Source: Escherichia coli
GTDB taxonomy: Bacteria > Pseudomonadota > Gammaproteobacteria > Enterobacterales > Enterobacteriaceae
Assembly (NCBI RefSeq): GCF_044324875.1
Contig: NZ_CP172185.1
Strand: one strand, 5' to 3'
Length of the DNA stretch: 64,000 bases
Below are positions 32,503-48,317 of the stretch, piece after piece (within the stretch, counting starts at the first letter, position 1; every line of letters starts with the position of its first letter). The notes below the pieces were generated by a model that was not told where the DNA came from, did not search any database, and saw only the letters and a program-made list of their open reading frames with translations. The position numbers and the translations under genes were made by a program.

Positions 32503-32751
32503 CAGCTAATCAACAAGGCCAGGGTTGGTAATTAATGACTTCTCCACGGGTGAGGTGGAGTGCGTGCGCCGGACACAGACTGGTTAACGTCGCCTGGAGG
32601 CACCAGGCACCGCATCAACAAAGTTCACTTCGGTGATGAAAGGTAAGAGAAAATGTTGAATGTAGCTATTGAAAACCAGTACGGGTGGAATTATAGTGCA
32701 CCTGCACCTCATAAAGCGGGTGCCGGGATTGCTACCCCGACGTTCACTAAC

Positions 32752-32785
32752 GCGCATAACCGCGCCCAGGCGGTTTTTTTATGCG
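32752..32785 (+). terminator. Candidate intrinsic terminator/regulatory hairpin in the early-left leader
   Basis: CCGC-GCCCAG-GCGG followed by TTTTTTT, nested in a 7-bp outer stem CGCATAA/TTATGCG. Confidence 0.3.
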
Positions 32786-32946
32786 TAATGCACAGCCACA
32801 TTCAGATTATGGTGGGGCGTGCAGGGCAGCCGCAAGGCTGGCCGGGTTCGTTAGTGACCGGTTGTAGCAACCCTGTACGTCTCACCACCCATGAGATTGC
32901 TACCTCCGGTGGTGAGTTAATCAAATTCACTAACGAGGCTGCCATC

Positions 32947-35936: not shown

Positions 35937-35990
35937 TGAACCGCCCCGGGAATCCTGGAGACTAAACTCCCTGAGAAAGAGGTAAACAGA

Positions 35991-36317
35991 ATGACTAAAA
36001 ATACTCGTTTTTCCCCCGAAGTCCGTCAGAGGGCGATTCGTATGGTTCTGGAAAGTCAGGGCGAATATGACTCACAGTGGGCGGCAATTTGTTCCATTGC
36101 CCCAAAGATTGGCTGTACACCGGAGACTCTGCGTGTCTGGGTACGCCAGCATGAGCGGGATACCGGAGGCGGTGATGGCGGGCTCACCACCGCTGAACGT
36201 CAGCGTCTGAAAGAGCTGGAACGTGAAAATCGTGAACTGCGCCGCAGTAACGATATCCTTCGCCAGGCTTCCGCTTATTTTGCGAAGGCGGAGTTCGACC
36301 GCCTCTGGAAAAAGTGA
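35991..36317 (+). CDS. IS3-family transposase OrfA
   Basis: ORF track, 108 aa; HTH and leucine zipper. Confidence 0.9.
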
Positions 36318-37204
36318 TGCCACTGCTGGATAAGCTGCGTAAGCTGTACGGGGTCGGACCGGTATGCAGTGAACTACATATTGCCCCGTCAACGTATTAC
36401 CACTGTCAGCAACAGCGACATCATCCGGATAAACGCAGTGCCCGTGCGCAGCGCGATGACTGGCTGAAGAAAGAGATACTGCGCGTATACGATGGGAATC
36501 ATCAGGTATACGGTGTGCGTAAAGTCTGGCGTCAGTTGTTACGGGAAGGAATCAGGGTAGCCAGATGTACAGTGGCGCGCCTCATGGCGGTTATGGGACT
36601 TGCCGGTGTTCTCCGGGGTAAAAAGGTCCGCACTACCGTCAGCCGGAAAGCCGTTGCCGCAGGCGACCGCGTAAACCGTCAGTTTGTGGCAGAACGTCCT
36701 GACCAGTTGTGGGTGGCTGATTTTACTTACGTCAGCACATGGCAGGGGGTCGTCTATGTGGCGTTCATCATTGATGTGTTTGCCGGATACATCGTGGGGT
36801 GGCGGGTCTCATCGTCTATGGAAACGACATTCGTGCTGGATGCTCTGGAGCAGGCGTTATGGGCCCGTCGACCGTCCGGCACAGTCCATCACAGTGATAA
36901 AGGTTCTCAGTATGTATCGCTGGCCTACACACAGCGGCTTAAGGAAGCCGGATTACTGGCATCAACAGGAAGTACTGGTGACTCGTATGACAACGCGATG
37001 GCGGAGAGCATCAATGGCCTTTACAAAGCGGAGGTAATACACCGTAAGAGCTGGAAAAACCGGACAGAAGTGGAGCTGGCCACACTCACGTGGGTGGACT
37101 GGTATAACAATCGACGATTGCTGGAAAGGCTGGGCCATATCCCACCGGCAGAAGCAGAAAAAGCTTATTATGCTTCCATCGGAAACGATGATCTGGCAGC
37201 CTGA
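36314..37204 (+). CDS. IS3-family transposase OrfB (DDE catalytic region; normally expressed as OrfAB by -1 frameshift)
   Basis: ORF track, 296 aa; overlaps orfA by 4 nt. Confidence 0.9.
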
Positions 37205-37246
37205 GTTCACAGATAAAACACTCTCCAGGAAACCCGGGGCGGTTCA

Positions 37247-37654
37247 GTTCCTGATGGTGGCACCATCGAATGGTGGCTGAAGCAGTCCAGCGAAGCCAGA
37301 GCTGCCATTTTAACTGACCAGGTAAAAATGAAAGATGCCCTTTTGCGTTTTCGGGAATTCGTCAATGAACACTCCGATGAAAAATTCGTTCAGGTGTGGG
37401 GTAATGGCGCAACGTTCGATAACGCAATTTTGCGCACCTCATACGAACGTCTGGACATCCCCTGTCCGTGGCATTACAGCAACGATCGTGATGTACGCAC
37501 AATCGTTGAGATGGGGAAAATCACAGACTTCAATGCCAGAAGCGTAATTCCATTCGAAGGCGTGCGCCATAATGCTCTGGATGACGCTCTTCACCAGGCA
37601 AAATACGTAACAGCCGCTATACAAAAACTGATCCCGAATCAGGCTGATTTTTAA
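37247..37654 (+). pseudogene. C-terminal fragment of the IS-disrupted exonuclease (DEDDh 3'-5' exonuclease domain remainder)
   Basis: In-frame continuation VPDGGTIEWWLKQ...; motifs WGNGATFDNAIL and VRHNALDDALH complete the DLETMG motif found before the IS. Confidence 0.7.
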
Positions 37655-37706: not shown

Positions 37707-37985
37707 GTGATAGCCATGAGCGAACAGTACCTGATAACGCTCGATGAGTGGAAACCAAAACGGTTCAGTCTCCCAATAACAAACACTACCCTGGTGAAAT
37801 ATGGAAAACTAGGATACATCGTTCCAAGACCACAAAAAATTCGTGGGCGTTGGCTGATAGATCGCCGGGCAGTATTTGTTGGGCCAGGTGAAACAGGAAT
37901 TGCGCCGGAAATTCATACTGGCGATGATGATGCACTGAAGGAGATTTTAACTCATGTCACCGAGGCCACGAAAAAACAGCACTGA
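37707..37985 (+). CDS. xis: Excisionase (Xis-like)
   Basis: ORF track, 92 aa; YLITLDEW...VKYGKLGYIVPRPQKIRGRWLIDRRAV resembles lambda Xis; 3' end overlaps the int start. Confidence 0.6.
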   Translation: MIAMSEQYLITLDEWKPKRFSLPITNTTLVKYGKLGYIVPRPQKIRGRWLIDRRAVFVGPGETGIAPEIHTGDDDALKEILTHVTEATKKQH

Positions 37986-39072
37986 CGTAGCCGGTCTTTA
38001 CGAAAAGTTTGATCGCAGAACTGGCAGGGTTTACTACCAGTATAAAAACCCTGTGACTGGAAAATTTCACGGTCTCGGAACAGACAAATGTAAGGCAGAA
38101 AAAATCGCTTCCACAGCCAATCAGCGAATAGCTGCAGCAGAAGCTGAATATTACATGCGCAAAATTGATGAAAGTCCGTCAGCAACAAAACGTCGGGGTA
38201 TCAGATTAAAGGCATGGGTTGAACGATATCTGAAAATACAGGACACACGACTAAAAAATGGAGATATTGCAGCTACAACCCACAAAGAAAAAGCCCGAAT
38301 GGCTGCATACCTGGTTTCCCGTCTGGGAAACCACCCATTGAAAGAACTGGAAGTAAGAGACTTTGCATTGATACTGGATGAGTGGCTGGATAAAGACATG
38401 GTCAGCACGGCGAGAGTAAACCGTGGATTATGGGTTGATATTTATAAAGAAGCACAGCATGCAGGGGAAGTTCCTCCCGGATGGAATCCTCCGGAGGCTA
38501 CCCGTAAACCGATCCCTAAAGTAAGCAGAGCCAGACTCACCCTGGAAGACTGGCAAAAAATTTACAATGCAACGCCTGAAAGGCACTTTATTCGTAACGC
38601 AATGCTTCTTGCAATTGTTACTGGTCAGCGCCGTGATGACATTTGCCACATGCGTTTTTCAGATGTGTGGAACGAACACTTGCATATCACCCAGGGAAAA
38701 ACCGGAATGCGTCTGGCGTTACCGCTTACACTCCGCTGTGATGCCATTGGGATAACGTTAAAAGAAGTTATTGATGGATGCCGAGACAGAATATTAAGTC
38801 CATACCTAATCCATAGTCGGCACCAGAAACAACCAAAACCGATGAGTAAAGACAACCTGAGCGACTACTTTGCCAAAGCACGGGATCTGGCTGGGATAAT
38901 TCCACCAGCAGGAAAAACTCCTCCCACATTTCATGAACAACGCTCTCTATCAGAACGGCTGTACCGTACGCAGGGTATCGATACAAAAACATTACTGGGA
39001 CATAAAATCCAGGCAACCACCGATCGCTATAACGATACCCGAGGTCAGGAATGGGTTAAGTTGGTTATTTGA
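37954..39072 (+). CDS. int: Tyrosine integrase (lambda Int family)
   Basis: ORF track, 372 aa; C-terminal LLGHKIQATTDRYNDTRG with catalytic Tyr; terminal position next to host DNA. Confidence 0.9.
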   Translation: MSPRPRKNSTDVAGLYEKFDRRTGRVYYQYKNPVTGKFHGLGTDKCKAEKIASTANQRIAAAEAEYYMRKIDESPSATKRRGIRLKAWVERYLKIQDTRLKNGDIAATTHKEKARMAAYLVSRLGNHPLKELEVRDFALILDEWLDKDMVSTARVNRGLWVDIYKEAQHAGEVPPGWNPPEATRKPIPKVSRARLTLEDWQKIYNATPERHFIRNAMLLAIVTGQRRDDICHMRFSDVWNEHLHITQGKTGMRLALPLTLRCDAIGITLKEVIDGCRDRILSPYLIHSRHQKQPKPMSKDNLSDYFAKARDLAGIIPPAGKTPPTFHEQRSLSERLYRTQGIDTKTLLGHKIQATTDRYNDTRGQEWVKLVI

Positions 39073-39238
39073 CAAACACCATATGGAATATCCGTCACCA
39101 TCTCAGGAAAAAAGTGTTGTAAAATGCGTGGCCTTGTTTTGGGGAAAAGTTTTGGAGAGATTTTGGAGAAAGGAAAAAATTGAATAAATTCAAAATCCTG
39201 AAAGTGCTCCACCTTATGAATAAAAAGGTGGAACTCGA
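39073..39238 (+). other. Prophage-host junction (att core somewhere here) with 3'-terminal potB codons (...KVLHLMNKKVELE-stop) ending in ATGA overlap with the potC start
   Basis: Frame ending TGA at 39240..39242 is open back to about 39123 but the potB body is absent, replaced by int. Confidence 0.4.
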
Positions 39239-40033
39239 ATGATCGGTCGACTGCTTCGCGGCGGTTTTATGACCGCTATCTACGCGTACCTGTATATCCC
39301 AATCATTATTTTGATTGTGAACTCCTTTAACAGCTCGCGCTTTGGCATCAACTGGCAGGGTTTTACCACCAAATGGTATAGCCTGCTGATGAACAACGAC
39401 AGCCTGTTACAGGCAGCGCAGCATTCACTAACAATGGCGGTGTTTTCGGCGACGTTTGCTACGCTTATCGGTTCACTGACGGCAGTTGCGCTGTACCGTT
39501 ATCGCTTTCGTGGTAAGCCGTTCGTTAGCGGAATGCTGTTTGTGGTGATGATGTCACCAGATATCGTGATGGCGATTTCGCTGCTGGTGCTGTTTATGCT
39601 GCTGGGTATTCAGCTTGGCTTCTGGTCGCTGCTGTTCTCGCATATCACCTTCTGCCTGCCATTTGTGGTGGTGACAGTGTATTCGCGCCTGAAAGGTTTT
39701 GACGTGCGAATGCTGGAAGCGGCGAAAGATCTCGGTGCCAGCGAATTTACCATTCTGCGAAAAATCATTCTGCCACTGGCAATGCCAGCGGTAGCGGCGG
39801 GCTGGGTGTTAAGCTTTACCCTGTCGATGGACGATGTAGTAGTTTCTTCGTTCGTCACCGGACCAAGCTATGAAATTCTGCCGTTAAAAATTTATTCGAT
39901 GGTCAAAGTCGGCGTATCGCCGGAAGTTAACGCGCTGGCAACCATATTACTGGTGCTGTCGCTGGTGATGGTAATTGCCAGCCAGCTTATTGCTCGTGAT
40001 AAAACGAAAGGTAACACAGGGGACGTTAAATGA
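39239..40033 (+). CDS. potC: Spermidine/putrescine ABC transporter permease PotC
   Basis: ORF track, 264 aa, matches E. coli PotC. Confidence 0.95.
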   Translation: MIGRLLRGGFMTAIYAYLYIPIIILIVNSFNSSRFGINWQGFTTKWYSLLMNNDSLLQAAQHSLTMAVFSATFATLIGSLTAVALYRYRFRGKPFVSGMLFVVMMSPDIVMAISLLVLFMLLGIQLGFWSLLFSHITFCLPFVVVTVYSRLKGFDVRMLEAAKDLGASEFTILRKIILPLAMPAVAAGWVLSFTLSMDDVVVSSFVTGPSYEILPLKIYSMVKVGVSPEVNALATILLVLSLVMVIASQLIARDKTKGNTGDVK

Positions 40034-41076
40034 AAAAATGGTCACGCCACCTGCTCGCGGCGGGTGCTCTGGCACTGGGCATGAGCGCCGCTCACGCCGA
40101 TGACAACAACACGCTGTATTTTTACAACTGGACCGAGTACGTGCCACCAGGACTGCTTGAACAGTTCACCAAAGAAACCGGTATTAAGGTTATCTATTCG
40201 ACTTACGAGTCGAACGAAACCATGTATGCCAAGCTGAAAACGTACAAAGACGGTGCCTATGACCTGGTGGTTCCTTCAACCTATTACGTCGATAAAATGC
40301 GTAAAGAAGGGATGATCCAGAAGATCGACAAGTCGAAGTTAAGCAATTTCAGCAACCTCGATCCAGACATGCTCAATAAGCCGTTTGACCCGAATAACGA
40401 CTACTCCATTCCGTATATCTGGGGTGCGACGGCGATTGGTGTTAATGGTGATGCGGTGGATCCCAAATCCGTTACCAGCTGGGCCGATCTGTGGAAGCCT
40501 GAGTACAAAGGCAGCCTGCTGCTGACCGACGATGCCCGTGAAGTGTTCCAGATGGCACTGCGTAAGCTGGGCTACTCCGGTAACACCACCGATCCGAAAG
40601 AGATTGAAGCTGCATACAACGAGCTGAAAAAACTGATGCCAAACGTCGCGGCGTTTAACTCCGATAACCCGGCGAACCCGTATATGGAAGGCGAAGTTAA
40701 CCTCGGCATGATCTGGAACGGTTCTGCTTTCGTTGCACGCCAGGCGGGTACGCCAATTGATGTGGTGTGGCCGAAAGAAGGCGGCATTTTCTGGATGGAC
40801 AGCCTGGCGATCCCGGCAAATGCCAAAAACAAAGAAGGCGCGCTGAAATTGATCAACTTCCTGCTGCGCCCAGATGTGGCAAAACAGGTTGCTGAAACTA
40901 TCGGTTATCCAACGCCAAACCTTGCGGCGCGTAAGCTGTTAAGTCCGGAAGTGGCGAACGATAAAACGCTCTACCCGGATGCTGAAACCATTAAAAATGG
41001 TGAATGGCAGAATGACGTTGGCGCAGCCAGCAGCATTTATGAAGAGTATTATCAGAAGCTGAAAGCAGGACGTTAA
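40030..41076 (+). CDS. potD: Spermidine/putrescine ABC transporter periplasmic binding protein PotD
   Basis: ORF track, 348 aa, signal peptide, matches E. coli PotD. Confidence 0.95.
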   Translation: MKKWSRHLLAAGALALGMSAAHADDNNTLYFYNWTEYVPPGLLEQFTKETGIKVIYSTYESNETMYAKLKTYKDGAYDLVVPSTYYVDKMRKEGMIQKIDKSKLSNFSNLDPDMLNKPFDPNNDYSIPYIWGATAIGVNGDAVDPKSVTSWADLWKPEYKGSLLLTDDAREVFQMALRKLGYSGNTTDPKEIEAAYNELKKLMPNVAAFNSDNPANPYMEGEVNLGMIWNGSAFVARQAGTPIDVVWPKEGGIFWMDSLAIPANAKNKEGALKLINFLLRPDVAKQVAETIGYPTPNLAARKLLSPEVANDKTLYPDAETIKNGEWQNDVGAASSIYEEYYQKLKAGR

Positions 41077-41085
41077 TTCAGCAAG

Positions 41086-41114
41086 CGGGCGGTGGTATTA
41101 CCGCCCGTTTTTTA
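41086..41114 (+). terminator. Intrinsic terminator after potD
   Basis: CGGGCGGT-GGTATT-ACCGCCCG hairpin followed by TTTTTT, 10 nt after the potD stop. Confidence 0.65.
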
Positions 41115-41133
41115 TTTAGCAAGGATGTGGCTA

Positions 41134-41595
41134 ATGAGTCAGGACAGTAGAGTTTTCTTTCGTATATTCCTCGGTATCGGTCTGGTACTGATCCTCATTT
41201 CTGTTGTTGTCTTTTATAACCAGTTCACCTATAGCAAAGACGCGATTCATACTGAAGGCGTCATTGTTGATACCGTCTGGCACTCCAGTCATTCTCATCG
41301 CACGGGTAAAAATGGTTCGTGGTATCCCGTCGTTGCCTTTCGACCGACGCCTGATTACACGCTAATTTTCAATTCGAGTATCGGCAGCGATTTTTATGAA
41401 GACAGCGAAGGCGATAAAGTTAATGTTTATTATTCTCCAGGGCATCCTGAAAAGGCTGAGATAAATAACCCGTGGGTTAATTTTTTTAAATGGGGGTTTG
41501 TCGGCATTATGGGCGTTATTTTTATCGCCGTCGGTTTATTAATCAGTATGCCCTCCTCTAAAAAGTCACGCAGGAAACGGAAGTCCCGTCCATGA
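41134..41595 (+). CDS. ymfA: Inner membrane protein YmfA
   Basis: ORF 41092..41595 overlaps the potD terminator; start taken at internal ATG (MSQDSRVFF...) giving 153 aa. Confidence 0.8.
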
Positions 41596-42284
41596 AAAAA
41601 ATCATAATACTGCTCAGTTTACTGATACTGCTGCCTCTGACAGCAACCAGTAAGCCCTTAATCCCAATAATGAAGACACTTTTTACGGATGTTACAGGTA
41701 CTGTACCGGATGCTGAGGAGATTGCGCGGAAAGCGGAGCTTTTTCGTCAACAAACCGGGATTGCGCCGTTTATCGTGGTTGTACCTGACGTTAATGAAGC
41801 AAGCTTCAGGCAAAATGGCAAAGCGATGCTGGCGCATGCGTCATCTTCATTGAGTGATGTAAAAGGCAGCGTCCTGTTACTTTTTACCACCCGCGAGCCA
41901 CGGTTAATTATGATAACCAACGGCCAGGTTGAAAGCGGTCTGGACGATAAACATCTCGGCCTTCTGGTTGAAAATCACACTCATGCTTATTTACATGCGG
42001 ACCTCTGGTATCAGGGAATCAATAATGCATTGGCTGTTTTACAAGCACAGATATTAAAACAACCGACGCCGCCACTGACATATTATCCGCATCCCGGACA
42101 ACAGCAGGAGAATGATCCTCCCGGCAGTACCACGATATTAGGTCTTTTTGCCTGGGCAGTTGCATTCATCTTCTTTACTGCATTTTTTTACTACACGACG
42201 CGCCTTAATTATGCATTAAAGTTTGCAGTGGCGATGACTATTGCCAATATGGGTTATCAGGCTTTATGTTTGTACATCGGGTAA
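41592..42284 (+). pseudogene. ycfZ: ycfZ, 3'-truncated by IS1 (230 codons, stop supplied by the IS1 end)
   Basis: ORF track; reading frame runs into the IS1 inverted repeat (GGTAATGACTCC); displaced 3' codons remain after the IS at 43047..43158. Confidence 0.8.
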
Positions 42285-42294
42285 TGACTCCAAC

Positions 42295-42798
42295 TTATTG
42301 ATAGTGTTTTATGTTCAGATAATGCCCGATGACTTTGTCATGCAGCTCCACCGATTTTGAGAACGACAGCGACTTCCGTCCCAGCCGTGCCAGGTGCTGC
42401 CTCAGATTCAGGTTATGCCGCTCAATTCGCTGCGTATATCGCTTGCTGATTACGTGCAGCTTTCCCTTCAGGCGGGATTCATACAGTGGCCAGCCATCCG
42501 TCATCCATATCACCACGTCAAAGGGTGACAGCAGGCTCATAAGACGCCCCAGCGTCGCCATAGTGCGTTCACCGAATACGTGCGCAACAACCGTCTTCCG
42601 GAGCCTGTCATACGCGTAAAACAGCCAGCGCTGGCGCGATTTAGCCCCGACATAGCCCCACTGTTCGTCCATTTCCGCGCAGACGATGACGTCACTGCCC
42701 GGCTGTATGCGCGAGGTTACCGACTGCGGCCTGAGTTTTTTAAGTGACGTAAAATCGTGTTGAGGCCAACGCCCATAATGCGGGCAGTTGCCCGGCAT
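42295..42798 (-). CDS. insB: IS1 InsB
   Basis: ORF track, 167 aa. Confidence 0.9.
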
Positions 42799-42992
42799 CC
42801 AACGCCATTCATGGCCATATCAATGATTTTCTGGTGCGTACCGGGTTGAGAAGCGGTGTAAGTGAACTGCAGTTGCCATGTTTTACGGCAGTGAGAGCAG
42901 AGATAGCGCTGATGTCCGGCGGTGCTTTTGCCGTTACGCACCACCCCGTCAGTAGCTGAACAGGAGGGACAGCTGATAGAAACAGAAGCCAC
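42717..42992 (-). CDS. insA: IS1 InsA
   Basis: ORF track, 91 aa ([30 protein letters not shown]...). Confidence 0.9.
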
Positions 42993-43179
42993 TGGAGCAC
43001 CTCAAAAACACCATCATACACTAAATCAGTAAGTTGGCAGCATCACCTGTACATCGATAATAGCTTTGCGATTACCAGAATATCGCCGCTCTGGGCAGGG
43101 CTGATTGGTGTCTGTACGTTTATTGCCGCGTTGTTATTGACGAGTAAACGGTAAAAGAGGCAGTAAAGTGTGCGTTTAT

Positions 43180-43280
43180 TATGCCGGATGCGGCGCGAAC
43201 GCCTTATCTGGCCCACAAAACCCGCAAATTCAATTAATTGCGTCCCCTTGTAGGCCTGATAAGCGTAGCGCATCAGGCAA
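43180..43280. repeat. REP/BIME-type extragenic palindromes
   Basis: GCCGGATGCGGCGCGAACGCCTTATCTGGCC and TGTAGGCCTGATAAGCGTAGCGCATCAGGC units downstream of cobB. Confidence 0.5.
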
Positions 43281-43291
43281 TGCTTCCTGCT

Positions 43292-44113
43292 TTATAAGCC
43301 CTTCAGCAACTTTTCAACAAACTCTGGCACCACCTGGCTTGCCGGGCCGTAATATTTCTCGGCAAATTCATTACCGACCTGGCTTGGTTCAAGATTCAGT
43401 TCCACGGTGTGTGCGCCATGCAGTTTCGCTTCGTGAACAAACCCAGCCGCCGGATAAACATGCCCTGATGTACCAATGGCAATGAAAATATCGGCCATTG
43501 ACAACGCCATATAAATTTCATCCATGCCGAGTGGCATTTCGCCAAACCAAACGACGTGCGGGCGCAAGGGTGCCGGGAACTGGCAACAATGGCATTTATC
43601 TTCTGGCGTAACGTCTCCGGTCCAGTCGAGAACCTGACCACTTTGCGAACAGCGAACTTTCAGCAGTTCCCCATGCATATGAATGACATTGGTATTACCT
43701 GCGCGTTCATGCAGGTTGTCGATATTCTGCGTCACCAGCAAAAAGCGATCGCCGAGGGCGTCTTGCAGTTTAGCCAGCGCAAGATGCGCGGCGTTAGGCT
43801 GAATTTCTGGCTGCTGTAGCTGTCGACGACGGGCGTTATAAAACGCTTGCACCAGTTCAGGATCGCGATCGAAACCTTCCGGCGTTGCCACATCTTCAAC
43901 CCGATGTTCTTCCCACAGGCCATCTGCGGCGCGAAAGGTACGAATACCTGATTCCGCAGAAATCCCTGCCCCTGTCAGTACGAGTACTCTTGGTTTTTCC
44001 ATTGCTTCCGGCACCACTTTATCTCTGAAAAAAATACGCTGACGCAAACGCTCGCGCAGACGGCGTTTATTTTTACGAAAACGACTTAACCGATGACCCC
44101 GACGCGACAGCAT
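43292..44113 (-). CDS. cobB: NAD-dependent protein deacylase CobB (Sir2 family, long isoform)
   Basis: ORF track, 273 aa. Confidence 0.95.
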
Positions 44114-44128
44114 AGCAACCTCTGTTGT

Positions 44129-45040
44129 TTAATCGGTTAGATGTAGGAAGGCCGCACCACGCATTCCTCCCGCATCACCGTGGCGCGCGCGTTCAATGCG
44201 CGGAACACGAGCTACAGGTAAGAGATGACGAGGCAGCCTGTCCGCCAGTTGCGTTGTGATTGCCGGGAAATTCGATAAGCCACCACCAATGACGACCAGG
44301 TCAGGGTCAACAATGGTCAGGATATTTCCCAGACAAACCGCTAATAAATCCAGATAACGCTCAACGTGCGCCCTTGCCTGCTCATCACCTTGATCATAAA
44401 GCGCAATAATTTCGGGAGCCTGCAACGGTTGATGATAATAGTGTTGATACAGCCACGCAAAACCGCGACCAGACAGATAATTTTCAATGCAGCCATGCTG
44501 ACCACAGCCGCAGCGGCGTAACGGGAAATCCAGCCCCATCATGGTTAACGCATCAACCGGCAGACGCATATGGCCAAACTCGCCGGTAATATAGCTTTTA
44601 CCGGTAATTGGTTTACCGTTGAAAATCAGCCCGCCGCCAACGCCGGTGCCGAGAATCAACCCCATCACTAGTGGATATTGAGTAAATTCATCATCCCAGG
44701 CTTCTGAAAGGGCAAAACAGTTGGCATCGTTATCAAGGCGGACATCGCGATCAAGACGTGCGCTCAGGTCGGCACGCAGCGGTTTACCGCTGGCAGCGGG
44801 GACATTGGCGGCATACAGCGTACCATCTTCTGTTTCCGGCATTCCCGGAATACCGATGCCGACAGAACCTTTACAGCCAAAACGCTTATCGGCTTCAGCC
44901 ACCAGCTCGCACACTGCATCTAAAAATGCGTCATAGCTGTCACGCGGTGTCGGCACCCGCTTTTCCCACTGCAACTGCCGACTGCTATCAAACACGCCAA
45001 GCGCAATTTTTGTTCCACCAATATCAAACCCGTAATACAT
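44129..45040 (-). CDS. nagK: N-acetyl-D-glucosamine kinase NagK
   Basis: ORF 44129..45100; start at internal ATG ([15 protein letters not shown]...) giving 303 aa. Confidence 0.95.
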
Positions 45041-45068
45041 TGCCGCTCCTTGTTTTAATGTACTGCCT

Positions 45069-48317
<3,249 letters not shown>

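Follow-up and report, generated by a model that had tools for sequence, protein, structure and literature searches.

The ymfA-ycfZ operon of Escherichia coli encodes two uncharacterised inner-membrane proteins. In the 64,000-nucleotide stretch of E. coli DNA analysed here (the window), its second gene, ycfZ, breaks off at the boundary of an insertion sequence, which raises the question of how the gene came to be interrupted, what is left of its product and whether the loss is a private accident of one strain or part of a wider, possibly selected pattern. In the literature we found ycfZ in passing mentions only (in catalogues of putative virulence genes, as a hit in a CRISPRi screen and as one mutation in phage-resistant isolates). 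A sequence-only reading of the locus had proposed the strain-specific pseudogenisation of a core gene by IS1, and we followed up this proposal by comparing the locus with 5,426 complete E. coli genomes and with other sequence collections.

The interrupted gene and the inserted element

The genes around the interruption are arranged as potC-potD-ymfA-ycfZ, facing the convergent genes cobB-nagK-lolE, in the same order as in K-12, NRZ14408 and other strains. The upstream operon gene (41134..41595, plus strand), annotated as ymfA in syntenic loci, encodes a DUF3592 inner-membrane protein (Pfam PF12158) and shares 98.1% nucleotide identity with K-12 b1122 over 462 nt. Its TGA stop codon overlaps the ATG of ycfZ. 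The truncated ycfZ frame (41592..42284, plus strand) contains 230 sense codons, of which 229 are native (41592-42278). The last one is a hybrid GGG codon (42279-42281) composed of the final target base and the first two bases of IS1, producing a D230G exchange, and it is followed by a TAA stop (42282-42284) formed by IS1 bases 3-5. The claim that ycfZ reads into the IS1 terminal repeat and stops after 230 codons is thus correct.

The displaced 3' end of the gene is located on the far side of the element (43048..43154, plus strand). It comprises 34 whole codons, YIDNSF...LLLTSKR, and the original TAA stop at 43152-43154, and it translates as (L)YIDNSFAITRISPLWAGLIGVCTFIAALLLTSKR*, with 32 of the codons lying beyond the repeated target sequence. 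This agrees well with the "about 35" displaced codons ending in LTSKR that had been noticed earlier; the span then assigned to the whole event, 41592-43158, starts at the right base but runs 4 nt past the stop. No plus-strand frame of at least 30 aa ending at the original ycfZ stop is present in the open reading frame list, and expression of the remnant is therefore very unlikely.

Deleting the IS together with one repeat copy in silico generates a 786-nt open reading frame of 261 aa, with no base lost or gained. The restored gene aligns as a single ungapped piece (1-787 nt) at 99.9% identity to intact ycfZ from four E. coli genomes, including NRZ14408, and at 99.7% nucleotide identity to strain 042. 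This 261-aa allele is common among E. coli, and contigs encoding exactly the same protein number 739. Compared with K-12 YcfZ (b1121, 262 aa), the restored protein is 91% identical (238/262 aligned residues), and the two differ in length by a one-codon indel, the extra K-12 codon being located near residue 67. The two genes are thus colinear, as the sequence-only reading had expected, but its assumption of 262 codons does not hold for this allele. By synteny, sequence identity and the TPM domain of its product, we assign the interrupted gene as the ycfZ (b1121) orthologue. The same reading had named reference alleles that end at the same position without an IS as the observation that would speak against it. 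We found instead that K-12 YcfZ continues past the insertion point, and that ycfZ is uninterrupted across this site in 4,828 complete genomes.

The inserted element (42280-43047, minus strand) is 768 bp long, with its transposase genes antisense to ycfZ. Its right inverted repeat, IRR (GGTAATGACTCCAACTTATTGAT, 42280..42302), adjoins the 5' part of ycfZ and provides the stop codon, and its left inverted repeat, IRL (43025..43047), is the reverse complement of GGTGATGCTGCCAACTTACTGAT on the plus strand. The 23-bp ends pair at 18/23 positions and thus form imperfect terminal inverted repeats, beginning GGTRATG. The insA gene (42717..42992, minus strand) starts with GTG at IS1 coordinate 56 and encodes a 91-aa zinc-ribbon and HTH repressor that also serves as the N-terminal part of the transposase (PF03811, E = 1.3e-21; PF12759, E = 4.7e-31). 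The insB' frame (42295..42798, minus strand) has 167 codons and encodes the DDE catalytic part (PF03400, DDE_Tnp_IS1, E = 2.3e-78). An A6C slippery site, AAAAAAC (42735..42741, minus strand; IS coordinate 307), is in place for programmed -1 frameshifting, by which InsA and InsB' are joined, and a conceptual shift at this site would give an InsAB' protein of 232 aa. IS1 family elements have been described as 768 bp in length, with imperfect terminal repeats, the insA/insB' arrangement, an A6C frameshift, a 232-aa transposase and a target duplication of 8 or 9 bp (PMC12428005). Four E. coli records contain copies that are 100% identical to the window element, and the best match reaches at least 99% in 6,906 records. 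Judged by length, ends, insA, insB', A6C, target duplication and near-identity to the reference, the element classifies as a complete IS1 of the IS1A type, and all of its sequence features related to transposition are intact. A script scan detected no second IS1 end elsewhere in the whole window.

The element is flanked by two copies of the 9-bp sequence TGTACATCG, as had been noticed in the initial reading. The left copy (42271..42279) corresponds to ycfZ nt 680-688, and the right copy (43048..43056) abuts the right side of IS1. The repeats are perfect over 9 bp, and identity ends at 9 bp on either side; a 9-mer would match at two fixed positions by chance with a probability of 4^-9 (~4e-6). 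The target neighbourhood (within 10 bp) is 69% A+T, compared with 55% for ycfZ and 48.7% for the whole window. Further copies of TGTACATCG are found at 17334, 26450 and 30693 (reverse complement); they lie in unrelated contexts without IS ends and hence mark no further IS-related events.

The best explanation for these observations, and one we hold with little reservation, is that an ancestor of this lineage acquired an IS1A-type element by insertion into codon 230 of ycfZ; nothing contradicts the insertion itself. Following the known IS1 mechanism, a canonical element would have transposed into this codon by means of its InsAB' DDE transposase, which would have cut the two strands of an A+T-rich ycfZ stretch 9 bp apart. 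Joining of the IS ends and gap repair would then have produced the 9-bp duplication.

We considered two other ways in which the present arrangement could have come about. In place of a simple insertion, two IS1 copies might have recombined, or IS1 might have mediated a deletion or an inversion, so that the two flanks were joined. Adjacent deletions are known effects of IS1, and strain ET490 and its relatives carry an IS1 at this locus without a target duplication and with a segment missing. In the window, however, the identical 9-mer is present on both flanks, excision restores ycfZ exactly, and the gene order on either side of IS1 is that of K-12. With matching duplications, no bases missing and both flanks conserved, all three of these routes are excluded for this copy, and we regard such a history as exceedingly improbable. 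Alternatively, the assembler could have misplaced a repeat into a ycfZ gene that is in reality intact. IS1 is a multicopy element, with a median of ~11 matching places per E. coli genome having any, and repeats of this kind are a classic source of misassembly. Yet a misplaced repeat is not expected to be bounded at both ends by a perfect 9-bp duplication of a unique target, and the left junction between ycfZ and IS1 is also present in independent Logan short-read assemblies. An assembly artefact is thus hardly credible, and we take the element to be a genuine insertion in the discussion below.

Consequences for the YcfZ protein

We next considered what the insertion removes from the protein. 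YcfZ begins with a hydrophobic, signal-like segment at its N-terminus, followed by a TPM domain (PF04536) at residues 41-151, which scores 29.7 bits against a Pfam gathering score of 22.1. Its hydrophobicity profile contains a strong helix at ~179-201, a weaker segment at 211-229 and a strong final helix at ~239-259, around which the Kyte-Doolittle values peak at 2.01-2.05. The coding sequence is reduced to 230 codons, compared with 261 in intact orthologues, and residues 230-261, the last 32 residues, are removed and with them the final hydrophobic helix. The signal peptide, the TPM domain and the first hydrophobic helix are retained.

The last 39 residues of YcfZ are identical in K-12 and in the restored allele despite 5 nucleotide differences, which indicates that the C-terminus is under purifying selection. 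Its loss is therefore likely to damage the function or the membrane topology of the protein, and we infer that truncated YcfZ may be mis-anchored or non-functional. It is also possible that the 230-aa product retains a residual function, as its TPM domain is intact and NCBI gives it the name of an ordinary protein. Of the pseudogenisation proposed for this gene, the interruption and the loss of the last 32 residues stand; a loss of function, with signal peptide and TPM domain intact, is a probable consequence rather than an observed one. For the neighbouring genes we expect no polar effect, since no gene of the operon follows ycfZ and the next gene, cobB, is convergent and has its 3' end towards ycfZ. 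The cell probably tolerates the loss of ycfZ, given that the complete operon is missing from roughly one in ten E. coli genomes.

Distribution of ycfZ and of the insertion

In sensitive blastn searches, ycfZ was detectable in 4,848 of the 5,426 complete E. coli genomes. A probe made of the ends of potD and cobB located these two genes ~155 bp apart, with ymfA-ycfZ absent, in 575 genomes (about 11%). The gene is thus not near-universal and not strictly core in E. coli, and its description as a core gene was too strong.

To assess how far this exact insertion has spread, we used a 300-nt probe across the left junction (GCTTTATGTTTGTACATCG followed directly by GGTAATGACTCC). The junction was found in 0/5,426 complete E. 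coli genomes, where the three best probe matches represent other IS1 insertions in ycfZ. Exact-pattern scans for the left junction returned no matches among GTDB species representatives and none in JGI metagenomes; these two scans serve only to bound the rarity of the junction. For the right junction, a protein look-up found no record of its junction-specific 76-aa antisense open reading frame.

The left junction does occur in Logan short-read contigs, namely in run ERR14764776 and in a contig of ERR1512459 that is common to 3 samples. Identity to the window is 99.97% and 100%, respectively, and the contigs end 27-29 nt inside IS1. In addition, the exact 230-aa product is already public as an E. 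coli protein (WP_395762506.1 / XJR43447.1) under the name TPM domain-containing protein. A Shigella origin, considered in view of the IS1, is not supported, as the organism names recorded for this truncated product are E. coli. The insertion is best described as lineage-restricted rather than strain-specific or unique to one isolate. Over the 21-kb backbone on the right side of the IS, the best identity to any complete genome is 99.0%, and the host therefore belongs to a sparsely sampled lineage; the 13-kb region was found intact in no complete E. coli genome searched. How old the insertion is, and how far it has spread, can be bounded only roughly. The ycfZ-IS1 junction could be used as a lineage marker.

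Taken together, the insertion is real, fully explained and ordinary: it agrees with established biology, and its truncated product is already in public databases. As a textbook-clean case of insertional truncation by IS1, it is of little importance beyond annotation, where WP_395762506.1, the 230-aa "TPM domain-containing protein", is better regarded as the product of a ycfZ gene truncated by an IS.

Recurrent IS1 insertion at ymfA-ycfZ and comparison with known systems

Probes running from ycfZ into the IS1 ends revealed IS1 in or beside ymfA-ycfZ in 42 of the 5,426 complete genomes, 30 in the orientation seen in the window and 12 in the opposite one. We mapped eleven loci, numbering positions on the window ycfZ allele. 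Apart from the window's own insertion, ycfZ has been the site of at least eight separate IS1 events. Duplications of 9 bp flank the insertions at nt 27 (ET846, opposite orientation), nt 172 (S56), nt 584 (E138), nt 655 (23CRST009), nt 677 (N18-04097 and 19SZHZ869Rt, opposite orientation, 11 bp from the window site) and nt 748 (PSS-08-1), and an 8-bp duplication flanks the one at ~nt 95 (2017.02.04CC). The remaining event, in ET490 and three genomes with the same match pattern, combines IS1 with a deletion from ymfA -57 to ycfZ nt 110 and has no duplication. Outside ycfZ, we located an insertion just 3' of the ycfZ stop in PRO_A-1462 and one at the 3' end of ymfA in 51489, each with an 8-bp duplication. 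Further probe matches fall where ymfA is annotated as split in two, which points to additional IS1 events in that gene. The window site (nt 688) is shared by none of the mapped events. IS1 disruption of ycfZ is thus ordinary, with similar events elsewhere in the same operon in other strains.

The number of these events raises the possibility that loss of YmfA-YcfZ has been repeatedly selected, for example where a phage or toxin exploits envelope proteins, and that the window IS1 represents one convergent knock-out among several. Apart from the recurrence of IS1 and the genomes that lack the whole operon, this idea draws on the unusual divergence of ycfZ alleles (dS of 0.415 relative to K-12, compared with 0.06-0.13 for neighbouring genes) and on a study of phage-resistant APEC isolates in which ycfZ was one of the mutated genes (PMC12057083). 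The authors of that study caution, however, that mutations seen once may be hitch-hikers. The IS1 count itself must be read against a rough uniform expectation, calculated from ~59,000 chromosomal copies across the 5,426 genomes, of ~35 IS1 in the ~3.3-kb zone captured by the probes and ~13 in the 1.25-kb operon. Set against these values, the 42 cases amount to at most a roughly 3-fold excess, with clonal kin counted (about a dozen of them belong to the OkiPb series). IS1 moreover favours A+T-rich DNA, and target preference alone could explain an excess in a gene of 55% A+T within a window of 48.7%. The dN/dS ratio of 0.11 between alleles indicates purifying rather than diversifying selection. 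We do not claim an IS1 hot spot at ymfA-ycfZ, as any enrichment is at most modest, and we consider an adaptive disruption unlikely. It is similarly doubtful that ymfA-ycfZ has been lost recurrently under selection and harbours ancient diversity among its alleles across E. coli; if so, the insertion would represent an adaptive and convergent loss of a pair of envelope proteins that a phage, toxin or host factor exploits. For the study of the two proteins it is mildly useful to know that ymfA-ycfZ is dispensable, repeatedly struck by IS1 and unusually divergent between lineages.

We compared the window insertion with the IS1 insertions in ycfZ of other strains. They involve the same element family and the same gene, carry 9-bp duplications and mostly truncate the C-terminal membrane region. 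In contrast, none of them shares the window site at nt 680-688 or its duplication TGTACATCG, some are inserted in the opposite orientation or belong to the isoforms IS1X2 and IS1B (93-99.7% identity), and their host alleles are only 89-92% identical to the window allele. These differences in site, duplication, isoform and allele together indicate that the insertions in other strains are independent events. The ymfA-ycfZ-null genotype, as found in E. coli O121 RM8352, resembles the window in that it cannot provide full-length YcfZ either, and the existence of such natural null genomes implies that YcfZ function is dispensable in nature. In RM8352, however, the whole two-gene operon is gone and no IS is present, whereas the window keeps ymfA and 88% of ycfZ. 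The closest known relative of the element itself is IS1A of K-12 (NC_000913.3 19796-20563), the "consensus" active IS1, with which it shares the 768-bp length, insA, A6C, insB', the terminal repeats and a conceptual InsAB' of 232 aa. The two are identical at 765/768 bases and differ by 3 point mismatches, at positions 208, 325 and 507 of the window element, and in their chromosomal site.

Divergence and presence of the ymfA-ycfZ operon

We compared ycfZ, the membrane-protein gene that is interrupted by IS1 in the window, with its K-12 counterpart in 200-nt windows. Over its full extent (41592-43154), the gene shares only 82-92% nucleotide identity with K-12, whereas the genes around it (potC, potD, ymfA, cobB, nagK and lolE; flanks 39239-47200) are 94-100% identical. 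Across the region 39239-47200, divergence between E. coli lineages is thus far larger in ycfZ than in the flanking genes. The synonymous divergence from K-12 follows the same pattern, with a dS of 0.415 for ycfZ and of 0.06-0.13 for its neighbors, and the ycfZ dN/dS ratio in this comparison is 0.11. Among the 4,848 complete E. coli genomes in which ycfZ is detectable, the allele found in the window is matched at 99% identity or better in only 42, and at 80-90% identity in 3,030. Members of the YcfZ protein cluster at 90% identity include entries from E. fergusonii, from cryptic-clade Escherichia and from S. dysenteriae. The divergence of ycfZ, together with the spread of identities across genomes, suggests that the gene exists in several classes of old alleles or that alleles have been imported.

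The operon as a whole (41134-43154) is also polymorphic for its presence. In 575 of 5,426 complete E. coli genomes, O121 strain RM8352 being one example, potD and cobB are separated by ~155 bp, and both ymfA and ycfZ are missing. A private deletion in a single strain, JSMCR1, extends from potD into ycfZ.

IS1 in other strains and short repeats in the window

IS1 lies inside or adjoins ymfA-ycfZ in 42 complete E. coli genomes. In the mapped loci of other genomes (L001, L002 and L011-L019), the element occupies many distinct sites, in either orientation, with target duplications of 8 or 9 bp. ET490 and three further genomes that share its match pattern carry an IS1 with an associated deletion and without a duplication. 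In E. coli PSS-08-1 (L001), the annotation marks ymfA as a pseudogene because of an internal stop, and ycfZ contains IS1X2; both genes of the operon have thus been hit independently.

The 9-mer TGTACATCG, which is duplicated on either side of the IS1 in the window's ycfZ, occurs elsewhere in the window in three extra copies, at 17334, 26450 and 30693 (two on the plus strand, one as the reverse complement), against a chance expectation of ~0.5 occurrences. No IS ends are located beside these three copies. Because their sequence contexts are unrelated and lack IS ends, the extra copies are probably coincidental. The intergenic region between ycfZ and cobB (43165-43290) contains GC-rich palindromic units, such as GCCGGATGCGGCGCGAACGCCTTATCTGGCC and GTAGGCCTGATAAGCGTAGCGCATCAGGCA, which by eye look like candidate REP/BIME elements.

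A lambdoid prophage adjoining potC

By similarity to phage records, a lambdoid prophage occupies positions ~1-39216 and adjoins potC. Its integrase gene maps to 37954-39072, and the same records identify ORFs resembling an excisionase, a large gene for an exonuclease, a Q antiterminator and genes for replication. Homology to K-12 restarts at 39217, only ~26 nt short of the end of potB, which places the prophage in the potB 3' end. The remainder of potB, as well as potA, lies outside the window.

A second insertion sequence, a 1,310-bp IS3-family element (35937-37246), has 25-bp terminal inverted repeats that are 92% complementary and an apparent 3-bp duplication, GTT. It contains orfA (35991-36317), orfB (36314-37204) and an ALIL frameshift pseudoknot (36272-36388; Rfam RF01497, 116 bits). 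The element splits the prophage exonuclease gene into a 683-amino-acid ORF that reads into it and a 108-amino-acid remainder (37328-37654).

Two adjacent Rfam hits, one to isrK (62.7 bits) and one to C4 antisense RNA (78.2 bits), are located on the plus strand at 32704-32892, both within the prophage. The prophage also has a pair of neighboring tRNA genes, tRNA-Arg(UCU) and a tRNA-Met/Ile-like(CAU) gene (20978-21131, minus strand). In the 1.3 kb downstream of this pair, no ORF reaches 150 amino acids, the size of stxA. Paired tRNA genes downstream of Q are typical of lambdoid and Stx-type phages.
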